30,854 nt of DNA from a virus. The stretch lies in the IMG/VR virus record IMGVR_UViG_3300045988_061841, positions 1 to 30,854 of that record, one strand, 5' to 3'. The notes beneath the pieces are model-generated. The model saw nothing but the letters and a program-made list of their open reading frames with translations. It searched no databases and was not told the DNA's origin. Positions 1 through 15,214 of this stretch are shown here, in pieces. Position numbers and translations under genes: made by a program. Positions within the stretch are counted from its first letter, which is position 1. Each line of letters starts with the position of its first letter.

Positions 1-55
1 CCTGACGGATAATTCTATTACTTCAAATTATGAAATGAATGTAATTCTCGGTCTA
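1..55. repeat. 55-nt terminal direct repeat, identical to 30800-30854 (circular-contig overlap or terminal redundancy)
   Basis: First 55 nt (cctgacggataattctattacttcaaattatgaaatgaatgtaattctcggtcta) recur exactly at the very end of the window. The repeat overlaps the 3' end of the integrase ORF. Confidence 0.9.
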
Positions 56-1365
56 TCGTCTTCATCAAGGTCGATTCGGTCGACGGTCTGTTGCCAGAAT
101 TGCCGTCGCTGTTCTCTTGTCATCTTCTCATAATACGGACGAATGCCACTAGGGAAATAATAATTAAGCGGAGTAGAGGGCTGTATCTTCGGCGTTTCTA
201 CTTCGGCGATAGCCGCCGATAATTCGGCGTGAGTCTTTTTATACTCGTCCAAGTCGATAAGTTCGTTCAAGAACAGCTCTTTTAGTCTCGCAAGCTTACG
301 CTTTAACTTCTCTACGTCAGTCGTAACAGGCTGCGGCTTTTGCTTTTTCTTAACAGAATACTGAAAATCCCTATAAGCTTCATCGAAGGAGTCAAGAAGT
401 GATTCTTCAATCGTCTTTTCGGCAACTCGGCGGCGGTGAGTACAGGGCTTGAAGGGTGAAACACTCTGCGGACACTGATAATAATAGTAGGTCTTGCCGT
501 TGTTTTTCCCGACGCAACCTATACCGGTATACGGATGACCGCACATCGGACAGCGAATAAGACCCGTGAACAGGAATATCCGACCGGTCGGTGTCCGCTT
601 AATTAGTTTCTTAGACTTTATTATTTTCTGTGCCTTATAGAATAATTCTTCCGTGACTAGCGGCTGACAGAAGCTGGCATCGCCGCGGGATCGCCCTATG
701 TACCGTTCGTTCTTCAATACGTGGCTAATGCTCGCATACGTATAATAGAACCCGTGGCTGCACATCCAACGAGCCGCTTCGGTGAGATTCTGGGTTTTAA
801 CGAAATGCTCAAAAAGCGGCTGCACATACTTGGCGTTCTCATTCGGTACGAGTTTCTTGTCTTGAACACTATAGCCGAACGGTATCTTGCCACTGCATAT
901 TTCGTGCCTTGCCCGCTTCTGAGCGAACACAAAATGAATGCGGTCGCTTGTCATGTCTGACTCGTTCTGTGCGATTGAGAGTTTAATGTTCAGCATAAGC
1001 CGACCGTTCGTTGTGGTCGTATTATAGTCTTCTTGAGTGGTCTCCCAATCTACTTTGTGCGTATCCAGAATCTCTTGAGCCTTGTAATAATCTTTTACTG
1101 ACCTGAACCAACGGTCGAGCTTAATGAAGAGAACACGGTCAATTTTATTCTGTCGAATATCCTCAATTAATTGCTTGAAGGCACGACGGGAAAACGGCTT
1201 CTTCCGTGCTGACGCTCCGTCGTCGGTATAAACGCCGACTATATTGTATTTGTGCTTATCAGCGTAGCTTCTGAGGTCTGTAAGTTGTGCGTCAAGAGAT
1301 AAGCCCTGCCGTGCTTGCTCTTCAGTGCTTACGCGAATGTATAATGCGACTCGTTTATTCTTCAT
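28..1365 (-). CDS. large serine recombinase (phage integrase)
   Basis: 445 aa. The N-terminus (VALYIRVSTEEQ...GLSLDAQ) is a resolvase/invertase catalytic domain with the catalytic Ser motif. A recombinase domain follows, then a Cys-rich zinc ribbon (CPMCGHPYTG...CPQ...C) and a C-terminal coiled-coil region. SD ggaga lies upstream of the ATG on the - strand. Confidence 0.9.
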   Translation of the reverse strand: MKNKRVALYIRVSTEEQARQGLSLDAQLTDLRSYADKHKYNIVGVYTDDGASARKKPFSRRAFKQLIEDIRQNKIDRVLFIKLDRWFRSVKDYYKAQEILDTHKVDWETTQEDYNTTTTNGRLMLNIKLSIAQNESDMTSDRIHFVFAQKRARHEICSGKIPFGYSVQDKKLVPNENAKYVQPLFEHFVKTQNLTEAARWMCSHGFYYTYASISHVLKNERYIGRSRGDASFCQPLVTEELFYKAQKIIKSKKLIKRTPTGRIFLFTGLIRCPMCGHPYTGIGCVGKNNGKTYYYYQCPQSVSPFKPCTHRRRVAEKTIEESLLDSFDEAYRDFQYSVKKKQKPQPVTTDVEKLKRKLARLKELFLNELIDLDEYKKTHAELSAAIAEVETPKIQPSTPLNYYFPSGIRPYYEKMTREQRRQFWQQTVDRIDLDEDDRPRITFIS

Positions 1366-1386: not shown

Positions 1387-1412
1387 CCCCGCACAGGCGG
1401 GGTCTTTTTTTT
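1387..1412. terminator. rho-independent terminator hairpin, bidirectional-looking, between int and repressor genes
   Basis: ccccgc-acag-gcgggg stem-loop followed by T8 on the + strand. An A-tract precedes it, so it can work in both directions. Confidence 0.6.
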
Positions 1413-2010
1413 AGTTTATTTCGCTTTGCTTTAACACCGCTAATCCCAAAACTTTAAAATCCGTACAATTCGACTCGCTGAATTGAAGCGGTGCATACTT
1501 CGGGTTTTCGGATACTAGCATAACCCCTGTATCTGTCTTGTAGAACCGCTTAATACATACCCGTTCGTTATCAATTTCGACGCAAGCTATTTTGCCATTC
1601 GGTACTTCAGGTTGAGCCTTAACAAAGACGATGTCGCCGTCATTAATGCCCGCGTTTATCATCGAGTCACCGCGGACGGTAATACAGAAGTCAACCGCAT
1701 ATCGTGAATCGGTTTCCACATAATACGTATCTTGCCCGTCTAGGTTTTCAAGTGGCTGACCAGCCGCCGCATATCCTAGCATAGGCACACGCTTCAGCGA
1801 GGGAACGAACACGGGAGCTGAACTATACAGCGTATCCATATTCACGTTGAAGTAATCGGCAATTGCTTCGAGAACCTCAAAGCTAGGTTTTCTTTTTCCG
1901 TTCTCGTACATACTAATTGAACTTTTTACAAGCTTTAATTCGCGGGCAAGGTCGTCTTGAGTCAATCCGCGAGACACTCGTAATTCTTTTAACCGCTTGG
2001 CAAAATCCAT
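1411..2010 (-). CDS. CI-like prophage repressor (XRE-family HTH fused to S24 LexA-like peptidase domain)
   Basis: The N-terminus (LKELRVSRGLTQDDLARELKLVKSSISMYENGKRKP) is an HTH. The C-terminus (VRGDSMINAGINDGDIVFVK...CIKRF) shows the Ser/Lys dyad of an S24 autopeptidase. It is divergent from the cro-like gene, and SD aaaaggag precedes the ATG. Confidence 0.9.
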   Translation of the reverse strand: MDFAKRLKELRVSRGLTQDDLARELKLVKSSISMYENGKRKPSFEVLEAIADYFNVNMDTLYSSAPVFVPSLKRVPMLGYAAAGQPLENLDGQDTYYVETDSRYAVDFCITVRGDSMINAGINDGDIVFVKAQPEVPNGKIACVEIDNERVCIKRFYKTDTGVMLVSENPKYAPLQFSESNCTDFKVLGLAVLKQSEIN

Positions 2011-2545: not shown

Positions 2546-3313
2546 ATGAACCAATTACAAGTTTTTAACAACACGGAGTTCGGGCGAGTCCGGACAATGG
2601 TGATTAGCGGATCTCCTTGGTTTGTAGCAAAGGATGTTTGCGAGTGCTTAGACATTAATAATTCACGGCAAGCATTAGCAAGGTTGGACAGTGATGAAAA
2701 GAATAGTGTCATTTTAAATGACGGTACTCCGGGGAACCCTGAAAAAGGGATTGTTAACGAATACGGCTTATACAGCCTAGTGCTTTCAAGTCGAAAACCT
2801 TCAGCGAAAGCGTTCAAACGCTGGATAACTCACGAAGTAATCCCGACAATTCGTAAGCACGGAGCGTATATGACTGGTGAAACACTGGAACAGGCGTTAA
2901 CATCACCGGATTTTCTCATCAGATTAGCAACAGAACTCAAGACTGAACAAGAAGCACGAAAAACGGCAGAAGCACAGATTGAAGCGGATAAGCCGAAAGT
3001 CTTATTTGCGGATTCAGTCGCCGCAAGTCACGGCAGTATCTTGGTTGGTGAGTTGGCAAAGTTGCTTAATCAGAACGGAATCGATATCGGACAGAACCGA
3101 TTATTTAACTGGCTGCGTGAGAATGGATATCTGATTTGCCGCAAGGGTACAGATTACAACATGCCGACTCAAAGAAGCATGGAAATGCAGTTATTCAACA
3201 TTAAGGAAACGGCAATCACGCATAGTGACGGGCATGTTTCTATTAGTAAGACGGTGAAAGTCACAGGTAAAGGGCAAGTGTATTTTGTTAACAAATTCTT
3301 AAAAGGAGCGTAA
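2546..3313 (+). CDS. phage antirepressor (Bro-N domain + KilAC/ANT C-terminal domain)
   Basis: The N-terminus (FGRVRTMVISGSPWFVAKDVCECL...NEYGLYSLVLSSRKPSAKAFKRWITHEVIPTIRKHGAY) matches the Bro-N consensus. The C-terminus (ELAKLLNQNGIDIGQNRLFNWLRENGYL) is ANT-like. Confidence 0.85.
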   Translation: MNQLQVFNNTEFGRVRTMVISGSPWFVAKDVCECLDINNSRQALARLDSDEKNSVILNDGTPGNPEKGIVNEYGLYSLVLSSRKPSAKAFKRWITHEVIPTIRKHGAYMTGETLEQALTSPDFLIRLATELKTEQEARKTAEAQIEADKPKVLFADSVAASHGSILVGELAKLLNQNGIDIGQNRLFNWLRENGYLICRKGTDYNMPTQRSMEMQLFNIKETAITHSDGHVSISKTVKVTGKGQVYFVNKFLKGA

Positions 3314-3316
3314 ACG

Positions 3317-3490
3317 ATGAGAAAACAAGCGGTACTTACCGCACCGCCCGCATGGGTCAACAGCCGCCATGGTCTGACAAAAGGAAAGGCGATCCGTTTA
3401 GAAGAAGAAAGCGAGGTAAGCGAATGGAAAGAAACCGCAGCCATATGGCTGTATATCGGCGGCATGATTATTTTCGCCGCAGCACTGTAA
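3317..3490 (+). CDS. small membrane protein (57 aa), preferred over the overlapping track ORF 3352-3558
   Basis: A strong SD (aaaaggagcg) lies 8 nt upstream of the ATG at 3317. The product MRKQAVLTAPPAWVNSRHGLTKGKAIRLEEESEVSEWKETAAIWLYIGGMIIFAAAL has a C-terminal hydrophobic helix. Confidence 0.5.
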   Translation: MRKQAVLTAPPAWVNSRHGLTKGKAIRLEEESEVSEWKETAAIWLYIGGMIIFAAAL

Positions 3491-4308: not shown

Positions 4309-5007
4309 GTGAAGAAGATGAAAGAAATACCGTTATTGACGGCTAATGATGTTGAGTGCCGCATAAAGAAGATAACGAATGAAGGAGCAGTCCTTTTACT
4401 GTATAAGACTGCAAGGGTTGATATGCGTATCCTCGACGAGGTGTACGGGTCAATGAATTGGCAACGACACCACGAGGTGATAAACGGCAATTTGTTCTGC
4501 ACTATATCGGTGTGGGACAGCAAAAAATCTCAGTGGGTAAGCAAACAAGACGTAGGGACGGAAAGCAATGCCGAAGCGGAGAAGGGGCAAGCGTCTGACG
4601 CATTTAAGCGGGCGGGGTTTGCGTGGGGTATAGGTCGTGAATTGTATGACGCTCCGTTTATTTGGATATCTGGGAAGGTCAGCAAGTACGACCGCTTCCA
4701 TGTAACTGATATCCGGTATGACAGAGAGAAGCAAGCGTTTACCCGGCTCGTGATTTTCGACGATAAGGGCAAAGAACGGTATCGCCTGAACGGAACGAAA
4801 ACGGATCGCCCGCAACCGACAGATGACCGCCGACAAAAGGGCATTGCGGCAATCGTTGAACTCGTGAAGAAGAATAACGCAGCCGAAGCCTTCACTGACT
4901 TCTTGAAGCAAACAACGAAAAAGGACGACTTAAACGCCTTGACCATTGCAGAACTACAAAGCGTATATAAGGGCTTTAAAAAGTGGCTTGAAGGCGGCAA
5001 ACAATGA
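4309..5007 (+). CDS. single-strand annealing protein, Rad52/Sak-like
   Basis: 232 aa. The motif SDAFKRAGFAWGIGRELY resembles the Rad52-family K-R-A...G-I-G-R-x-L-Y signature. The gene sits in a recombination module with Gp157. Confidence 0.55.
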   Translation: MKKMKEIPLLTANDVECRIKKITNEGAVLLLYKTARVDMRILDEVYGSMNWQRHHEVINGNLFCTISVWDSKKSQWVSKQDVGTESNAEAEKGQASDAFKRAGFAWGIGRELYDAPFIWISGKVSKYDRFHVTDIRYDREKQAFTRLVIFDDKGKERYRLNGTKTDRPQPTDDRRQKGIAAIVELVKKNNAAEAFTDFLKQTTKKDDLNALTIAELQSVYKGFKKWLEGGKQ

Positions 5008-5570
5008 AGTTTACAGCTAAAGGAATACAGGTAATTAAGTCTTTCGGAGTCGGGTTATTCATTCCGTCTCCGAAAGACAACGAATTATCACAGATAGACG
5101 AATCGCAAGAATATACAGTTGAGATAAAGAAAGCATGCAAAAAAAGAAGCCTAAATGCCAATGCTTTTTGTTGGGTCTTGTGCCAAAGAATCGCGGAGCA
5201 TTTAAGCCGTGACGGGCAGTATTCAAGCCGCGAGGACGTGTACCGCAAAGCAATAAAGGACTGCGGACATTTTACGCCGATACCCGTTAAAGCGGAAGCG
5301 GTTGAGCGATTCAAGGCAATATGGGCGGCTCATGGTATTGGGTGGTTGACCGAAGACCTTGGAGAAGCGAGGAAGTCGAAAGGGTACAGAGTATTGGCAG
5401 CTTATCACGGGTCAAGCACTTACGACACCACAGAGATGACGCGATTAATTGACTGCTTGGCTGATGAGTGCAGCCAACTGGGTATACGGCTCGAACCGCC
5501 TGAATACATGCAATCACTACTTAACGACTGGGGGCAAACAAATGATAGTCAATCAGTACGGAACGTATAG
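5004..5570 (+). CDS. NinB/Orf-like recombination protein
   Basis: 188 aa. KKRSLNANAFCWVLCQRIAEH resembles the lambda NinB motif RSLDQNRKLWACLGDVS. Confidence 0.45.
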   Translation: MKFTAKGIQVIKSFGVGLFIPSPKDNELSQIDESQEYTVEIKKACKKRSLNANAFCWVLCQRIAEHLSRDGQYSSREDVYRKAIKDCGHFTPIPVKAEAVERFKAIWAAHGIGWLTEDLGEARKSKGYRVLAAYHGSSTYDTTEMTRLIDCLADECSQLGIRLEPPEYMQSLLNDWGQTNDSQSVRNV

Positions 5571-5976
5571 AGAACACGGACACCGACATACACGACTGTA
5601 TAACATATGGAGCGGGATAAAGGCCCGTTGCAACCGCCGTAACAACCCTGATTACAAGCTTTACGGAGCAAGGGGCATACGGGTATGCGACGAATGGAAC
5701 GACTTCATGAAGTTTTACGACTGGGCGATATCGAACGGATACAGCGAAACGCTTACAATCGACCGTATTAACACGGACGGGGATTACACGCCGAGCAATT
5801 GCCGATGGGTCAACTGGAAGACGCAAGCGAATAACAAGAGGAACAATCACATGATTACGTTCCGCGGGAAGCGGGCAACCTTGCAACAGTGGGCAGATGT
5901 TATAGGGATTAAGGCAAATACCCTACTTTACCGACTTCGCCGAGGTTGGAGCGTGGAAAGGGCGTTAACGACATGA
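5542..5976 (+). CDS. homing-endonuclease-like DNA-binding protein (HNH_3-like degenerate motif + C-terminal HTH)
   Basis: The ATG at 5542 follows a GGGGG SD; the track ORF starting at 5449 is an extension. Motifs are YNIWSGIKARC...YGARGIRVCDEW, then TIDRINTDGDYTPSNCRWVNWKTQANN (HNH_3-like but lacking the first His), then a C-terminal HTH-like stretch WADVIGIKANTLLYRL. Confidence 0.5.
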   Translation: MIVNQYGTYREHGHRHTRLYNIWSGIKARCNRRNNPDYKLYGARGIRVCDEWNDFMKFYDWAISNGYSETLTIDRINTDGDYTPSNCRWVNWKTQANNKRNNHMITFRGKRATLQQWADVIGIKANTLLYRLRRGWSVERALTT

Positions 5977-6251
5977 ACAAGAATACAAAGCAAGATAGGG
6001 AACTATTTCGCAAGACGAAGTGGCAAGCGATTGAGCGAGATGGAAATTGTTGCGTGATATGCGGCAAATACGGGTGGGATGCTCACCATATCGTATTTCG
6101 CAGCCAAGGCGGCAAAAGCACGCTTGATAATCTCGTGTGTTTATGTAGAGAGTGTCACAACACGAAGGCACACGGCGTAAAGGCAAGGGAATACAGGGCG
6201 TTTTTTCAGTCGTATATCGACAGATTAAAAGGGGGCGAGCCTACTGAGTGA
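5973..6251 (+). CDS. HNH endonuclease
   Basis: The start overlaps the upstream stop in an ATGA arrangement. The motif CCVICGKYGWDAHHIVFRSQGGKSTLDNLVCLCRECHNTKAH is a classic HNH (C-x2-C ... HH ... N ... C-x2-C-H). Confidence 0.85.
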   Translation: MNKNTKQDRELFRKTKWQAIERDGNCCVICGKYGWDAHHIVFRSQGGKSTLDNLVCLCRECHNTKAHGVKAREYRAFFQSYIDRLKGGEPTE

Positions 6252-6306
6252 CAACAAGAAATATTACTACATACGGCTCAAAGATAGCTTTTTCGACTCC
6301 GATGAA

Positions 6307-7125
6307 ATGAAGGTAATGGAGTCAATGAAAGACGGCTACCTATACGGCAATATCTTACTCAAGCTGTACTTGCGGTCACTAAAAAACAACGGGTGCTTAA
6401 TGCTCAATGACCGAATACCGTATAACGCTGAAATGCTTGCCACTATTACAGGTCATCAAGTCGGAACAGTTAAACAGGCATTGACGGTTTTTAAAGACTT
6501 AGGGTTAATCGAAGTTCTCGACAACGGGGCAATATATATGCTCGATATTCAGAACTTTATCGGCAACGGTAGTAGCGACGGAGACAGTAAGAGAGCCAAT
6601 AGAAGAGGTATTGTGGACAAATGTCCGACAAATGTCCGACAAATGTCCACCAGAGATAGAGATATAGATAGAGTTAGAGATAAAGATAAAGACAGAAATA
6701 AAGATAGAGATAAAGACAGAGATAGAGATACGGAAAACATTATATCCTTCCTCAACTCAACTACTGGGAGTAAGTACAAGGCTTCAACAGACAAGACCCG
6801 TAGGCTAATTGCCGCACGGCTTGCAGAAGGCTTTACCTTGGAAGACTTTAAGACGGTCATAAGCAAGAAAGCCAAAGAATGGCAAGGAACGGATATGGCT
6901 CAATATTTGAGACCTGAAACGCTGTTCGGCACGAAGTTTGAGGGATACCTTAATCAACCCGAAGTACGGAACAATAGGCGATCACCTACAAGCCGGGCAG
7001 AGCAAGAACGGCAAGAAGCAATAAACGTTGTGAATGAATTAATTGCAGAATACGAAGAAGAGGAGCGACAAAATGGACAAAGTAAGCACGACGAAAGCAA
7101 TAGCACCGCTTCAATTGGCTTTTAA
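6307..7125 (+). CDS. phage replisome organizer (Phage_rep_org_N-like). ATG-delimited ORF; the conserved N-terminal motif extends upstream to about 6244 without an ATG/GTG/TTG
   Basis: LYGNILLKLYLRSLKNNGCLML...IPYNAEMLATITGHQVGTVKQALTVFKDLGLIEVLDNGAIYMLDIQNFIG matches the replisome-organizer N-domain. The in-frame upstream codons encode KKYYYIRLKDSFFDSDE, the YYWLKLK-DFF hallmark. The gene carries an internal RD/KD low-complexity linker and iterons. Confidence 0.8.
   Translation: MKVMESMKDGYLYGNILLKLYLRSLKNNGCLMLNDRIPYNAEMLATITGHQVGTVKQALTVFKDLGLIEVLDNGAIYMLDIQNFIGNGSSDGDSKRANRRGIVDKCPTNVRQMSTRDRDIDRVRDKDKDRNKDRDKDRDRDTENIISFLNSTTGSKYKASTDKTRRLIAARLAEGFTLEDFKTVISKKAKEWQGTDMAQYLRPETLFGTKFEGYLNQPEVRNNRRSPTSRAEQERQEAINVVNELIAEYEEEERQNGQSKHDESNSTASIGF
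6616..6648. repeat. 3 tandem copies of the 11-bp unit gacaaatgtcc (candidate origin iterons inside the replisome organizer gene)
   Basis: Perfect tandem triplet. Each unit contains the small inverted repeat GACA..TGTC. Confidence 0.85.
6653..6730. repeat. degenerate (AGATA/AGACA)n purine-rich repeat tract encoding an (RD/KD)n linker; part of the putative ori
   Basis: gagatagagatatagatagagttagagataaagataaagacagaaataaagatagagataaagacagagatagagata. Confidence 0.8.
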
Positions 7126-7609
7126 GGGTGCATTAGAAAAAGACAGGTTACAGTTCTACGTCATGATGTTATCGGATATACCGCCTCAAATCTTAGAAGT
7201 GGCAGTAAAAAAGCTGATTATGACGAACAAATTCTTGCCGTCGATAGCTGAAATACGCGAAACGGCTTACGGCATTAAAGGCACGATAAGCGGCACGGCT
7301 GCACCCGACGAGTCTGAAGCATGGGGCGAAGTCGTTAAGGCGATACGGTCGGTTGGGTATTATGGTAAGCCGAAATTCAGCCATGAAGCCATAACAACAG
7401 CTGTTAATAATATCGGTTGGCAAGATATCTGCATGACTACGAACGACGGGATGAACACACTGCGAGCACAGTTCAGACGGGCGTATCAACTGGCAGCCGA
7501 ACGGCAGAAGGACAACCGAGATAACGCGGTACTTGGCATAAGCCCGAATAACGAGAAGCTGAAGCAGTTAACGCAGTTAACGGGGAACCTTGTGAAGCGG
7601 TTGAGTTAA
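7073..7609 (+). CDS. helicase loader, G39P-like (loader/inhibitor of DnaB-type helicase)
   Basis: The ATG at 7073 follows SD gaggagcg. The N-terminal domain contains NKFLPSIAEIRE, recalling the FPPSIAEI motif of the G39P family. It sits directly after the replisome organizer. Confidence 0.45.
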   Translation: MDKVSTTKAIAPLQLAFKGALEKDRLQFYVMMLSDIPPQILEVAVKKLIMTNKFLPSIAEIRETAYGIKGTISGTAAPDESEAWGEVVKAIRSVGYYGKPKFSHEAITTAVNNIGWQDICMTTNDGMNTLRAQFRRAYQLAAERQKDNRDNAVLGISPNNEKLKQLTQLTGNLVKRLS

Positions 7610-7664: not shown

Positions 7665-7925
7665 ATGAATAGCGAAAATAGAGAAAGGGAAACACTCATG
7701 TTAATAAAATGCTTAAGAGCGGCAAGAGAATCTCTTAAAGAGTCAGATATGTGGGGTAAATGGTTCGGCAAAGATGACTACGATGTACAACGTAATAGGA
7801 TAAGTGAGTCCACGATGAAAGCAGCCGCCAACGCAGAGATTGCCTTAATGGAAGCGTATAAATTAATGACAATGATGACTAGTGAGGAGGCAAGTAAGAA
7901 ATGGTCGGAAGCATATGGGGGATAA
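7665..7925 (+). CDS. hypothetical small protein (A+T-rich accessory gene)
   Basis: ATG at 7665 after SD ggagga; the track ORF starts at TTG 7653. 87 aa. Confidence 0.55.
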   Translation: MNSENRERETLMLIKCLRAARESLKESDMWGKWFGKDDYDVQRNRISESTMKAAANAEIALMEAYKLMTMMTSEEASKKWSEAYGG

Positions 7926-13975: not shown

Positions 13976-15214
13976 TTGAATATAGTAAAAAACTTCTTCG
14001 GAGTAGAACAAAGAGCTGAAGATAACGCATTTATTGACACGGCTGAAGATATAGACTTGAGTTTGCCGTCGTATGACCAGAATACGAGGGTGACGCGGCA
14101 ACAAGCGTTATCCGTTCCCGCTGTCGCGAGTGCTTTGTTCTTAATCAGTGGCATAATCGCGGGTATTCCTGTTAAGCTTTATAAGCGAGAAGGAAAACAG
14201 ATCACCGAAGTATCCGACGACCCTCGCATTAAACTACTGAACGTAGAAACGAATGCAGTTCTCGGAGCGTTCGAAACCAAGCAATCCATGTTGAATGACT
14301 TAATCATGGAGGGCTCTTGTTATTGTTATATCGGAAAGAACGGCAATAAAGCGGAGTCTTTGCAGTACGTGCCGAATTACAGAGTAGCGGTTATTGATAA
14401 TGGCAGACTCATCAATCGGCAAGTATCGTACTTAATCGACGGACAGCGATACGACGACTTCAACCTTGTAAGGGCGGTGCGAAACTCAACCGACGGTGTA
14501 CGAGGCCGCGGACTTCTTGACGACAACAGTATGCAAATATCAAGCATGTACAATGCCTTGGTGTATGAGAACGGAGTCATCAGTAAGGGAGTTCGCAAAG
14601 GCTTTTTGAAGTCAGAAGGACGGCTGACGGTTAAGGCTCTGGAAGCACTGAAACGGGCGTGGCGATACATGACTTCCAAGCTTGGACAGAGTGACGTTAT
14701 CGTCTTGAATAAGGGTATTACGTTCGAATCGGCAGACAGTACCGCAGTAGAAAATCAGCTGAATGAGTCGAAACAGACCAATGCCGACTTGGTGTATAAG
14801 TTATTCGGCTTTACGGCTGATACCTTCACCAATGAAAAGGCATTCAATATCTTTATCAAGACGACTGTTATGCCGATTGTTAACTGCTTTACGGAGTCAA
14901 TTAACAGGGCGTTGCTACTTGAAGATGAAAAAGGCACGTATTATTTCAGTTTGGATATGAACGACTTGCAAAAAGCGGACATGCTGACCCGCTTCAACGC
15001 GTATAAGACCGCTCTCGACAGTAACTGGATTAGTGCCGATGAGATTCGACAGCGTGAAGATTTATCGCCTATGGGTATCGACTTCGTATCAATGAACCTC
15101 GCGAACGTGTTCTACTACCCCAAAGATAAGAAAGTATACACGCCGAACACGGGTATATTGAGCGACTTAAACGACTTAAAGCCGCAGAAAGGGGGTGAAA
15201 ACAATGAAGATTGA
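13976..15214 (+). CDS. portal protein (HK97-family-like)
   Basis: 412 aa. Sits directly after terL. A TTG start follows SD agggggtg with 7-nt spacing. Confidence 0.8.
   Translation: MNIVKNFFGVEQRAEDNAFIDTAEDIDLSLPSYDQNTRVTRQQALSVPAVASALFLISGIIAGIPVKLYKREGKQITEVSDDPRIKLLNVETNAVLGAFETKQSMLNDLIMEGSCYCYIGKNGNKAESLQYVPNYRVAVIDNGRLINRQVSYLIDGQRYDDFNLVRAVRNSTDGVRGRGLLDDNSMQISSMYNALVYENGVISKGVRKGFLKSEGRLTVKALEALKRAWRYMTSKLGQSDVIVLNKGITFESADSTAVENQLNESKQTNADLVYKLFGFTADTFTNEKAFNIFIKTTVMPIVNCFTESINRALLLEDEKGTYYFSLDMNDLQKADMLTRFNAYKTALDSNWISADEIRQREDLSPMGIDFVSMNLANVFYYPKDKKVYTPNTGILSDLNDLKPQKGGENNED

Follow-up and report, generated by a model that had tools for sequence, protein, structure and literature searches.

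Translation in bacteria can begin at near-cognate codons such as CUG, AUA, AUU and AUC, an example being the AUU of infC. In E. coli reporters CUG is a functional, weak start codon with 1-2% of the activity of AUG (Hecht et al., bioRxiv 10.1101/063800). Annotated Listeria genomes also contain rare non-canonical start codons, including CTG (PMC13068326). Here we analyze the replisome organizer gene in a stretch of 30,854 nucleotides (nt) of viral DNA, positions 1 to 30,854 of IMG/VR record IMGVR_UViG_3300045988_061841, which we call the window. Based on comparison with related sequences, we predict that the organizer gene is intact and that its translation probably starts at a near-cognate CTG at 6244-6246. 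We found nothing specific in the literature on CTG or CUG starts in phage replication genes or replisome organizers. The organizer CTG is a well-supported new instance of a known phenomenon, the near-cognate start codon, and is otherwise ordinary.

Start codon of the replisome organizer gene

The organizer reading frame opens after a TAA at 6226-6228 and reads KGASLLSDNKKYYYIRLKDSFFDSDEMKVM. The features of the start region are:

5973-6251, plus strand: gene for a 92-amino acid HNH endonuclease (PF01844, E-value 3.6e-10)
6227-6239, plus strand: extended Shine-Dalgarno (SD) sequence AAAAGGGGGCGAG of the organizer gene, in a duplex with the 16S 3' tail
6235-6237, plus strand: codon -3 relative to the CTG (GCG in the window), inside the SD and variable among relatives
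6244-6246, plus strand: CTG, putative organizer start codon, assigned from homology, the SD, invariance and a selection boundary
6244-7125, plus strand: predicted coding sequence of the replisome organizer, 293 codons (PF09681, PF09524, TIGR01714, TIGR02220)
6307-6309, plus strand: ATG, first canonical start codon in the organizer frame, internal to the conserved domain

An earlier prediction made from the window's letters (the original prediction) placed the first ATG, GTG or TTG of this frame behind the conserved N-terminal motif, and both a frame scan and the domain profiles bear this out. The first canonical codon after the TAA is the ATG at 6307. The Phage_rep_org_N domain (PF09681; E-value 2.4e-32, 111.9 bits against a cut-off of 23.3) spans 6268-6606, with profile position 1 at the codon at 6268 and position 14 at ATG 6307, so a start at 6307 would drop the first 13 profile positions, including the YYY.RLKD.FFD hallmark. 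TIGR01714 (129.6 bits, cut-off 49.8) covers residues 8-120 counted from Ser 6247 and agrees with the PF09681 placement; together the two profiles put the hallmark motif upstream of every canonical start. The gene also matches Phg_2220_C (PF09524; 106.6 bits, cut-off 27), which spans 6739-6954, and TIGR02220 (108.3 bits, cut-off 66.65). A PDB sequence search with the organizer gave no match.

We fetched ~200 loci from IMG/VR, GTDB genomes and metagenomes (designated L with a number), which contain ~128 non-redundant start regions. The original prediction had proposed aligning relatives as a way to find the ancestral start, and the start of the relatives, mostly ATG, matches the position of the CTG. 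The annotated ATG of Brochothrix phage BL3 (ATG TCA GAC AGC AAA AAA TAT TAC) and that of Streptococcus phage Javan420 (ATG GCA GAT AAC AAA AAA TAC TAC) align exactly with CTG 6244. Across the ~128 regions, the codon six before the first Tyr is ATG in 101, CTG in 18, GTG in 4, TTG in 2 and ATA in 2, and one locus starts one codon later. The N-terminal motif at the start of the relatives is M-S/A-D-N-K-K-Y-Y-Y. All CTG cases fall in the window's own clade (organizer at least 85% identical). A pattern scan of IMG/VR for CTG followed by S-D-N-K-K-Y-Y returned only 7 contigs, all known members of the clade, and the ATG form returned more than 120; neither ATH nor CTG was found ahead of A-D-N-K-K-Y-Y in IMG/VR (0 matches). 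The scans indicate that near-cognate use is specific to the clade and not family-wide.

ATA occupies the homologous organizer start in two unrelated genomes, a Lachnospiraceae metagenome-assembled genome (MAG; L092, 2046-2048) and a Bacillota MAG (L105, 3001-3003), with a strong SD (AAAGAGGTGA; GGGGGTG) 5-8 nt upstream. An in-frame TAG two codons upstream of the ATA in L105 leaves no alternative start there. At these ATA codons the gene family may have acquired near-cognate starts independently.

Within the clade we compared 37 DNA sequences (the window and 36 from other public assemblies in IMG/VR, ENA and Logan), comprising 12 start-region haplotypes. All 37 sequences and all 12 haplotypes carry CTG at the homologous start. 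The original prediction had allowed for a sequencing error hiding an ATG. Apart from the general possibility of mistakes in sequencing and assembly, nothing favors such an error, and the identical CTGAG[T/C]GAC is found in all 36 other sequences, a few of which are possibly duplicates of one contig. At least one of the 36 (L003 or L118, which match the window perfectly here) may be the DNA from which the window itself came. The shared arrangement excludes a sequencing error, an explanation whose probability we put close to nil.

The codons just before the CTG vary. Codon -3 is GTG in 22 of the 37 sequences, GCG in 7, ATG in 3, ACG in 3 and GTA in 2; codon -2 is AGC, AGT, AAT or GGT, and codon -1 is CTA, CCG or CCA. 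Changes at position -3 fall on the wobble base of an HNH Gly codon (GGC/GGT); they leave the HNH protein unaltered and are evidently tolerated by the organizer. The GTG of relatives is part of the extended SD (GGGGGTGA; compare GGAGGTGA), as in other genes of the window that carry the same motif. Loci L209-L211 (about 1400-1440) have a canonical AAAAGGAG SD, ACG at codon -3 and CTG AGC GAC. Their HNH stop is shifted to a TAA two codons on (6 nt downstream), and no HNH gene was called by the source pipelines.

A search of 5.8 billion proteins returned 93 organizer-clade clusters (81-96% identity). We found 60 of these annotated from a GTG or ATG 3-4 codons upstream of the CTG, inside the SD (MSLL-, MNPL- and MSPL-SDNKK...), and in all 60 full-length clade proteins an L immediately precedes SDNKK. 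The other 33 are annotated from an internal Met (MKDGYL, MKVMES, MLNERI) and are without the hallmark motif. One database protein (P0025) is extended by 30 residues through the HNH gene in another frame.

The majority annotation, together with the GTG in 22/37 and ATG in 3/37 sequences, is what supports placing the true clade start at codon -3, which would make the window's GCG a start-loss allele with a truncated organizer from ATG 6307 or ATG 6325, or none. We consider this improbable. The GCG, GTA and ACG alleles leave 12 of the 37 sequences and 5 of the 12 haplotypes, the window included, with no canonical in-frame start upstream of the domain, yet these genes are otherwise intact and under purifying selection. 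Moreover, codon -3 sits inside the SD, just 0-2 nt from its core, a non-functional spacing; residues -3 to -1 are not conserved; and more distant relatives start exactly at the CTG position. ATG 6307, from which a truncated product would begin, has no SD (duplex -1.2 kcal/mol), and ATG 6325, the choice of many gene callers, has a weak SD only. A start at the CTG is the reading we prefer, with the GTG or ATG three codons upstream in some relatives lying within the SD and probably not serving as a functional start.

The ribosome-binding site points to the same codon. As the original prediction stated, AAAAGGGGG is present at 6227-6235 and the in-frame CTG follows 8 nt later. Pairing of the 25 nt before the CTG with the 16S 3' tail gives a duplex over AAAAGGGGGCGAG of -13.3 kcal/mol with a 4-nt spacer to CTG 6244; relatives with T in place of C reach -17.2 kcal/mol. 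The motif AA[AG]GGNGG[TC]GA occurs in 5 copies in the 30.8-kb window, and the other 4 (13959, 15188, 17040 and 30137) are 3-5 nt before the starts of long open reading frames (ORFs) at 13976, 15204, 17056 and 30149/30152. The plus strand has 28 strong SD-like sites, and 21 of them lie ahead of the canonical start of an ORF of 50 or more codons. The SD-like site at 6226 precedes the CTG and its 293-codon ORF.

Folding of the RNA of 6190-6300 found no significant structure (z -0.42), and we propose no riboswitch-like or SD-sequestering element in this region. ARAGORN found no tRNA in the window, so the phage encodes no special initiator tRNA of its own. At 3405-3418, 7878-7891, 10506, 13092 and 27659 there are strong SD-like sites (-12 kcal/mol or lower) after which no ORF of 50 or more codons begins with a canonical or near-cognate codon. 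These may belong to small ORFs or be chance matches.

Selection on the coding sequence was compared among 19 haplotypes over a 249-nt region. Of the 21 codons from the CTG to 6306, 12 are variable, and all changes are synonymous except one F/Y replacement. Each of codons -3 to -1 varies in its amino acid (A/V/M, S/N/G and L/P). The switch from unconstrained to constrained sequence is located at the CTG. The first 50 codons contain 7 other Leu codons, all of which show synonymous variation; CTG 6244 does not. The original prediction had offered two possibilities, a rare CTG start or truncation of the 5' end by an HNH insertion that leaves the motif untranslated, and had considered that the motif region might not be conserved at the protein level. 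Purifying selection on the 21 codons refutes an untranslated motif, and with it the truncation; near-complete synonymy from the CTG on shows conservation of the protein. Start at the CTG is the possibility that holds up, on start-position homology, SD spacing, clade-wide invariance and the selection boundary. This reading rests on five independent comparative lines of evidence.

Several points weigh against it. An in-frame GTG or ATG three codons upstream is present in 25/37 sequences and is usable in principle, though only 0-2 nt separate it from the SD core. The 37 sequences include many near-identical ones and comprise just 12 haplotypes. The T and G of the CTG are shared with HNH codons (ACT, GAG), and this overlap may explain part of the invariance; the HNH tail overlapping the CTG is otherwise variable. 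An AlphaFold2 model of the organizer (29-sequence alignment) has a mean predicted local distance difference test score (pLDDT) of 62, and pLDDT is below 50 for residues 1-16, so the structure gives no support for a need for the N-terminal motif. The efficiency figure for CUG comes from E. coli and may not match the tolerance of the phage host.

Origin of the CTG and its overlap with the HNH gene

In a MAFFT alignment, AGCCTA-TGAG of the ATG clade aligns with AGCCTACTGAG, with a single 1-nt gap opposite the C of the CTG. Veillonella prophages L084 and L085 belong to a ~58%-identical clade that reads ...AAGGAC TAG CCT ATG AGC GAT AAC; the window reads ...GGGGGC GAG CCT A CTG AGT GAC AAC at the same place. 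Judging from this alignment, the most likely origin of the CTG is a 1-nt insertion into an ancestral ATG (A-TG to ACTG). Without the inserted C the HNH frame (GAG CCT ATG AGT...) would run straight into the organizer. The insertion would thus also have thrown the HNH frame out of register with the organizer; with the C present, HNH ends at TGA 6249-6251, within organizer codons 2-3. The HNH tail (RLKGGEPTE) is encoded by the region of the organizer ribosome-binding site, and the last 8 codons of the HNH gene are read through this site and the start codon.

We propose that the strong extended SD, at a spacing the phage uses for other genes, drives initiation at the CTG by initiator tRNA. The product would be fMet-Ser-Asp-Asn-Lys-Lys-Tyr-Tyr-Tyr..., with the same N-terminus as in relatives that start with ATG. 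Ribosomes terminating at the HNH stop (TGA 6249-6251) may assist this initiation. A low translation rate is expected; if CUG works at ~1-2% of AUG as in E. coli, the initiator would be made at a low level. That ribosomes start at the CTG, that this may be coupled to HNH, that a nucleotide was inserted and that expression is low are inferred from the comparisons.

A stricter form of coupling would have the CTG used only by ribosomes that have just finished on the HNH frame (termination-reinitiation). The HNH TGA begins 2 nt after the CTG (CTGAGTGA) and is kept in 34/37 clade sequences, and the ATG lies right next to the HNH stop (GAATGAATGAGC) in relatives whose backbone carries another organizer allele. 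Strict dependence nevertheless seems unlikely to us. An SD of full strength has been kept at canonical spacing, an argument for SD-dependent initiation; L209-L211 retain both the CTG and the SD with their HNH stop 6 nt further downstream; and the distant clade has a different gene in front of the organizer. Strict coupling is in any case a refinement of the CTG start and not exclusive of it.

The arrangement of the two frames also resembles the programmed +1 frameshift of prfB (release factor 2), and a shift at GAG-UGA-C stimulated by AGGGGG would fuse HNH to the organizer. The likeness is that the organizer frame is +1 relative to the HNH frame, the 0-frame stop is UGA-C, an SD-like AGGGGG element is upstream, and deletion of the extra C would fuse both ORFs in frame. 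The differences are a lack of a slippery P-site codon, a wrong SD spacing and no fused product in relatives: GAG in the P site is unable to re-pair with AGU, the +1 codon; 10 nt lie between the end of AGGGGG (6235) and the shift codon GAG (6246), compared with ~3 nt; and an HNH-organizer fusion occurs in 0/139 loci, in most of which the two are separated by another gene or an intergenic gap. The UGA is also lost in L209-L211 (AGC GAC). A frameshift is therefore very improbable, and initiation at the CTG remains the preferred explanation. The +1 frameshift fusion, the sequencing error and the truncation by HNH insertion are rejected on the evidence set out above.

Organizer alleles differ among loci that share a backbone. 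In a group of loci (L016, L017, L134, L136, L138, L139, L142-L145 and L147; also L027, L065, L174 and L185) the Rad52-like, NinB-like, ORF1, HNH and G39P-like proteins are 85-95% identical to those of the window, and the organizers are just 46-55% identical. In four same-backbone loci only the C-terminal organizer domain is common (85%). The loci from L016 to L147 in this list diverge from the window from about HNH residue 81-90, which places a module boundary within the HNH 3' end. Their organizers start with ATG or GTG 16-47 nt after the aligned HNH end (GTG in L134); in L016 the ATG follows the HNH stop immediately. The pattern indicates allele and domain swapping of the organizer, with one putative junction inside the HNH 3' end.

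Upstream genes and context of the window

The window is a temperate siphovirus-like genome with a recombination/replication module on the plus strand. The order of this module is Sipho_Gp157, Rad52-like, NinB/Orf-like, ORF1, 92-amino acid HNH, replisome organizer, G39P-like loader and SSB. Downstream of SSB are the large terminase and structural genes. In addition to the features of the start region, we predict:

28-1365, minus strand: serine recombinase
1411-2010, minus strand: LexA-like repressor
2546-3313: antirepressor
4309-5007, plus strand: Rad52-like annealing protein
5004-5570, plus strand: NinB/Orf-like recombination mediator (PHROG 72, E-value 3.1e-20; weak PF05772 match), syntenic in 139 loci
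5542-5976, plus strand: ORF1, 144 amino acids (PHROG 3377 'HNH endonuclease', E-value 6.7e-56)
6616-6730, plus strand: direct repeats inside the organizer gene, in the inter-domain linker (Tandem Repeats Finder)
7073-7609, plus strand: G39P-like helicase-loader gene (PF11417, borderline at 22.1 bits against a cut-off of 22; PHROG 9804)

The helicase-loader gene adjoins the organizer directly downstream and is syntenic in relatives. We found no close cultured relative of the phage. A megablast of 5000-7200 against 50,697 phage records gave no match, and the best blastn matches among phage records have 64-70% identity, over the organizer only.

The original prediction described the two ORFs before the organizer as a homing-endonuclease cassette overlapping by ATGA. 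The overlap is there, at 5973-5976, and the ORF at 5973-6251 is a true HNH gene by its PF01844 match. The idea of a mobile cassette fits one of the two genes. A homologue of the 92-amino acid HNH protein follows the NinB-like gene in 139/139 loci with both flanks visible, including a clade ~55% identical, and is thus a resident gene of the recombination module and not a sporadic homing endonuclease. Among these 139 informative loci we saw no sporadic presence or absence of the gene at the site. In the distant clade (100 loci) ~5 nt separate NinB from HNH, and another small ORF (~250 nt) lies ahead of the organizer.

ORF1 is the gene that behaves as an insertion. The name 'HNH_3-like' given to it in the original prediction is not confirmed, with no match in Pfam (HNH_3 included), NCBIfam or PDB; its assignment comes from PHROG 3377 only. 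ORF1 fills the NinB-HNH junction exactly (a 406-nt gap, compared with ~5 nt elsewhere) and overlaps both neighbors. It is present in 39/39 close-backbone loci and in 0/100 loci of the distant clade. No empty ORF1 site was found among close relatives, and its mobility is deduced from the distant clade only. In L197 (about 1808-2239) and L198 (about 507-938) ORF1 has an in-frame stop, reading MIVNQYGTYKEHGH, stop, HTRLYNIW..., which suggests decay of what may be an inserted selfish gene. From its position and distribution, ORF1 (5542-5976) is likely an inserted free-standing endonuclease-like gene.

The last 29 nt of the NinB-like ORF overlap ORF1 (5542-5570). The alignment with the distant clade stops at ~residue 177, and nothing there matches the last ~11 residues of the NinB-like ORF (QTNDSQSVRNV), which fits a replacement of the original NinB stop by the ORF1 insertion.

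The organizer gene itself contains two arrays of direct repeats. GACAAATGTCC occurs three times (6616-6648), followed by 3.3 copies of an AGAGAT-rich 24-nt unit (6652-6730), and the second array encodes a DR/DK-rich linker. From their position inside the organizer gene, the repeats at 6616-6730 are candidate origin iterons, with a putative function as the replication origin.

Consequences and comparison with known systems

The main practical consequence is for annotation, as databases treat the start of this organizer clade inconsistently. Recognizing the CTG start gives the correct organizer N-terminus, of the same form as in relatives. As judged from the compared sequences, the locus would be a clean, comparatively well-supported natural case of a conserved CUG start in an essential phage gene. 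It would illustrate how near-cognate initiation can absorb a 1-nt indel between adjoining genes, and suggests that the initiator is needed in small amounts only.

The weak CTG, the unusually strong SD and the overlapping stop could also form a selected regulatory device and not a tolerated accident. We regard this as doubtful. If it were true, the replication initiator would be kept at a very low level, and its synthesis would be sensitive to host initiation fidelity (initiation factor 3 (IF3) level or growth state) or would depend on upstream recombination/HNH translation. In either case the device would gate phage replication after induction. The ATA starts of L092 and L105 would then be parallel cases.

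Similarities exist between ORF1 and free-standing HNH homing endonuclease genes of phages. Like these, ORF1 is small, is located between two conserved genes, overlaps both and is pseudogenized in some relatives. The 92-amino acid PF01844 HNH gene differs from them in that it is conserved in place across deeply diverged relatives.

The organizer has the features of the PF09681 and PF09524 organizers of Lactococcus, Streptococcus, Brochothrix and Veillonella-type phages and prophages. It shares with them the two domains, the M-S/A-D-N-K-K-Y-Y-Y N-terminus, a helicase-loader gene directly downstream and direct repeats inside the gene. It differs in having a CTG start in place of ATG, GTG or TTG, and in an 8-nt overlap with the upstream HNH gene.

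Like other near-cognate bacterial starts, the organizer CTG is a one-base variant of AUG, lies at canonical distance from a strong SD, is conserved in its lineage and is presumably decoded by the initiator tRNA. The differences are that it belongs to a phage replication-initiator gene, that it overlaps the 3' end of an upstream HNH gene, and that it apparently arose by a 1-nt insertion within the ATG and not by substitution.

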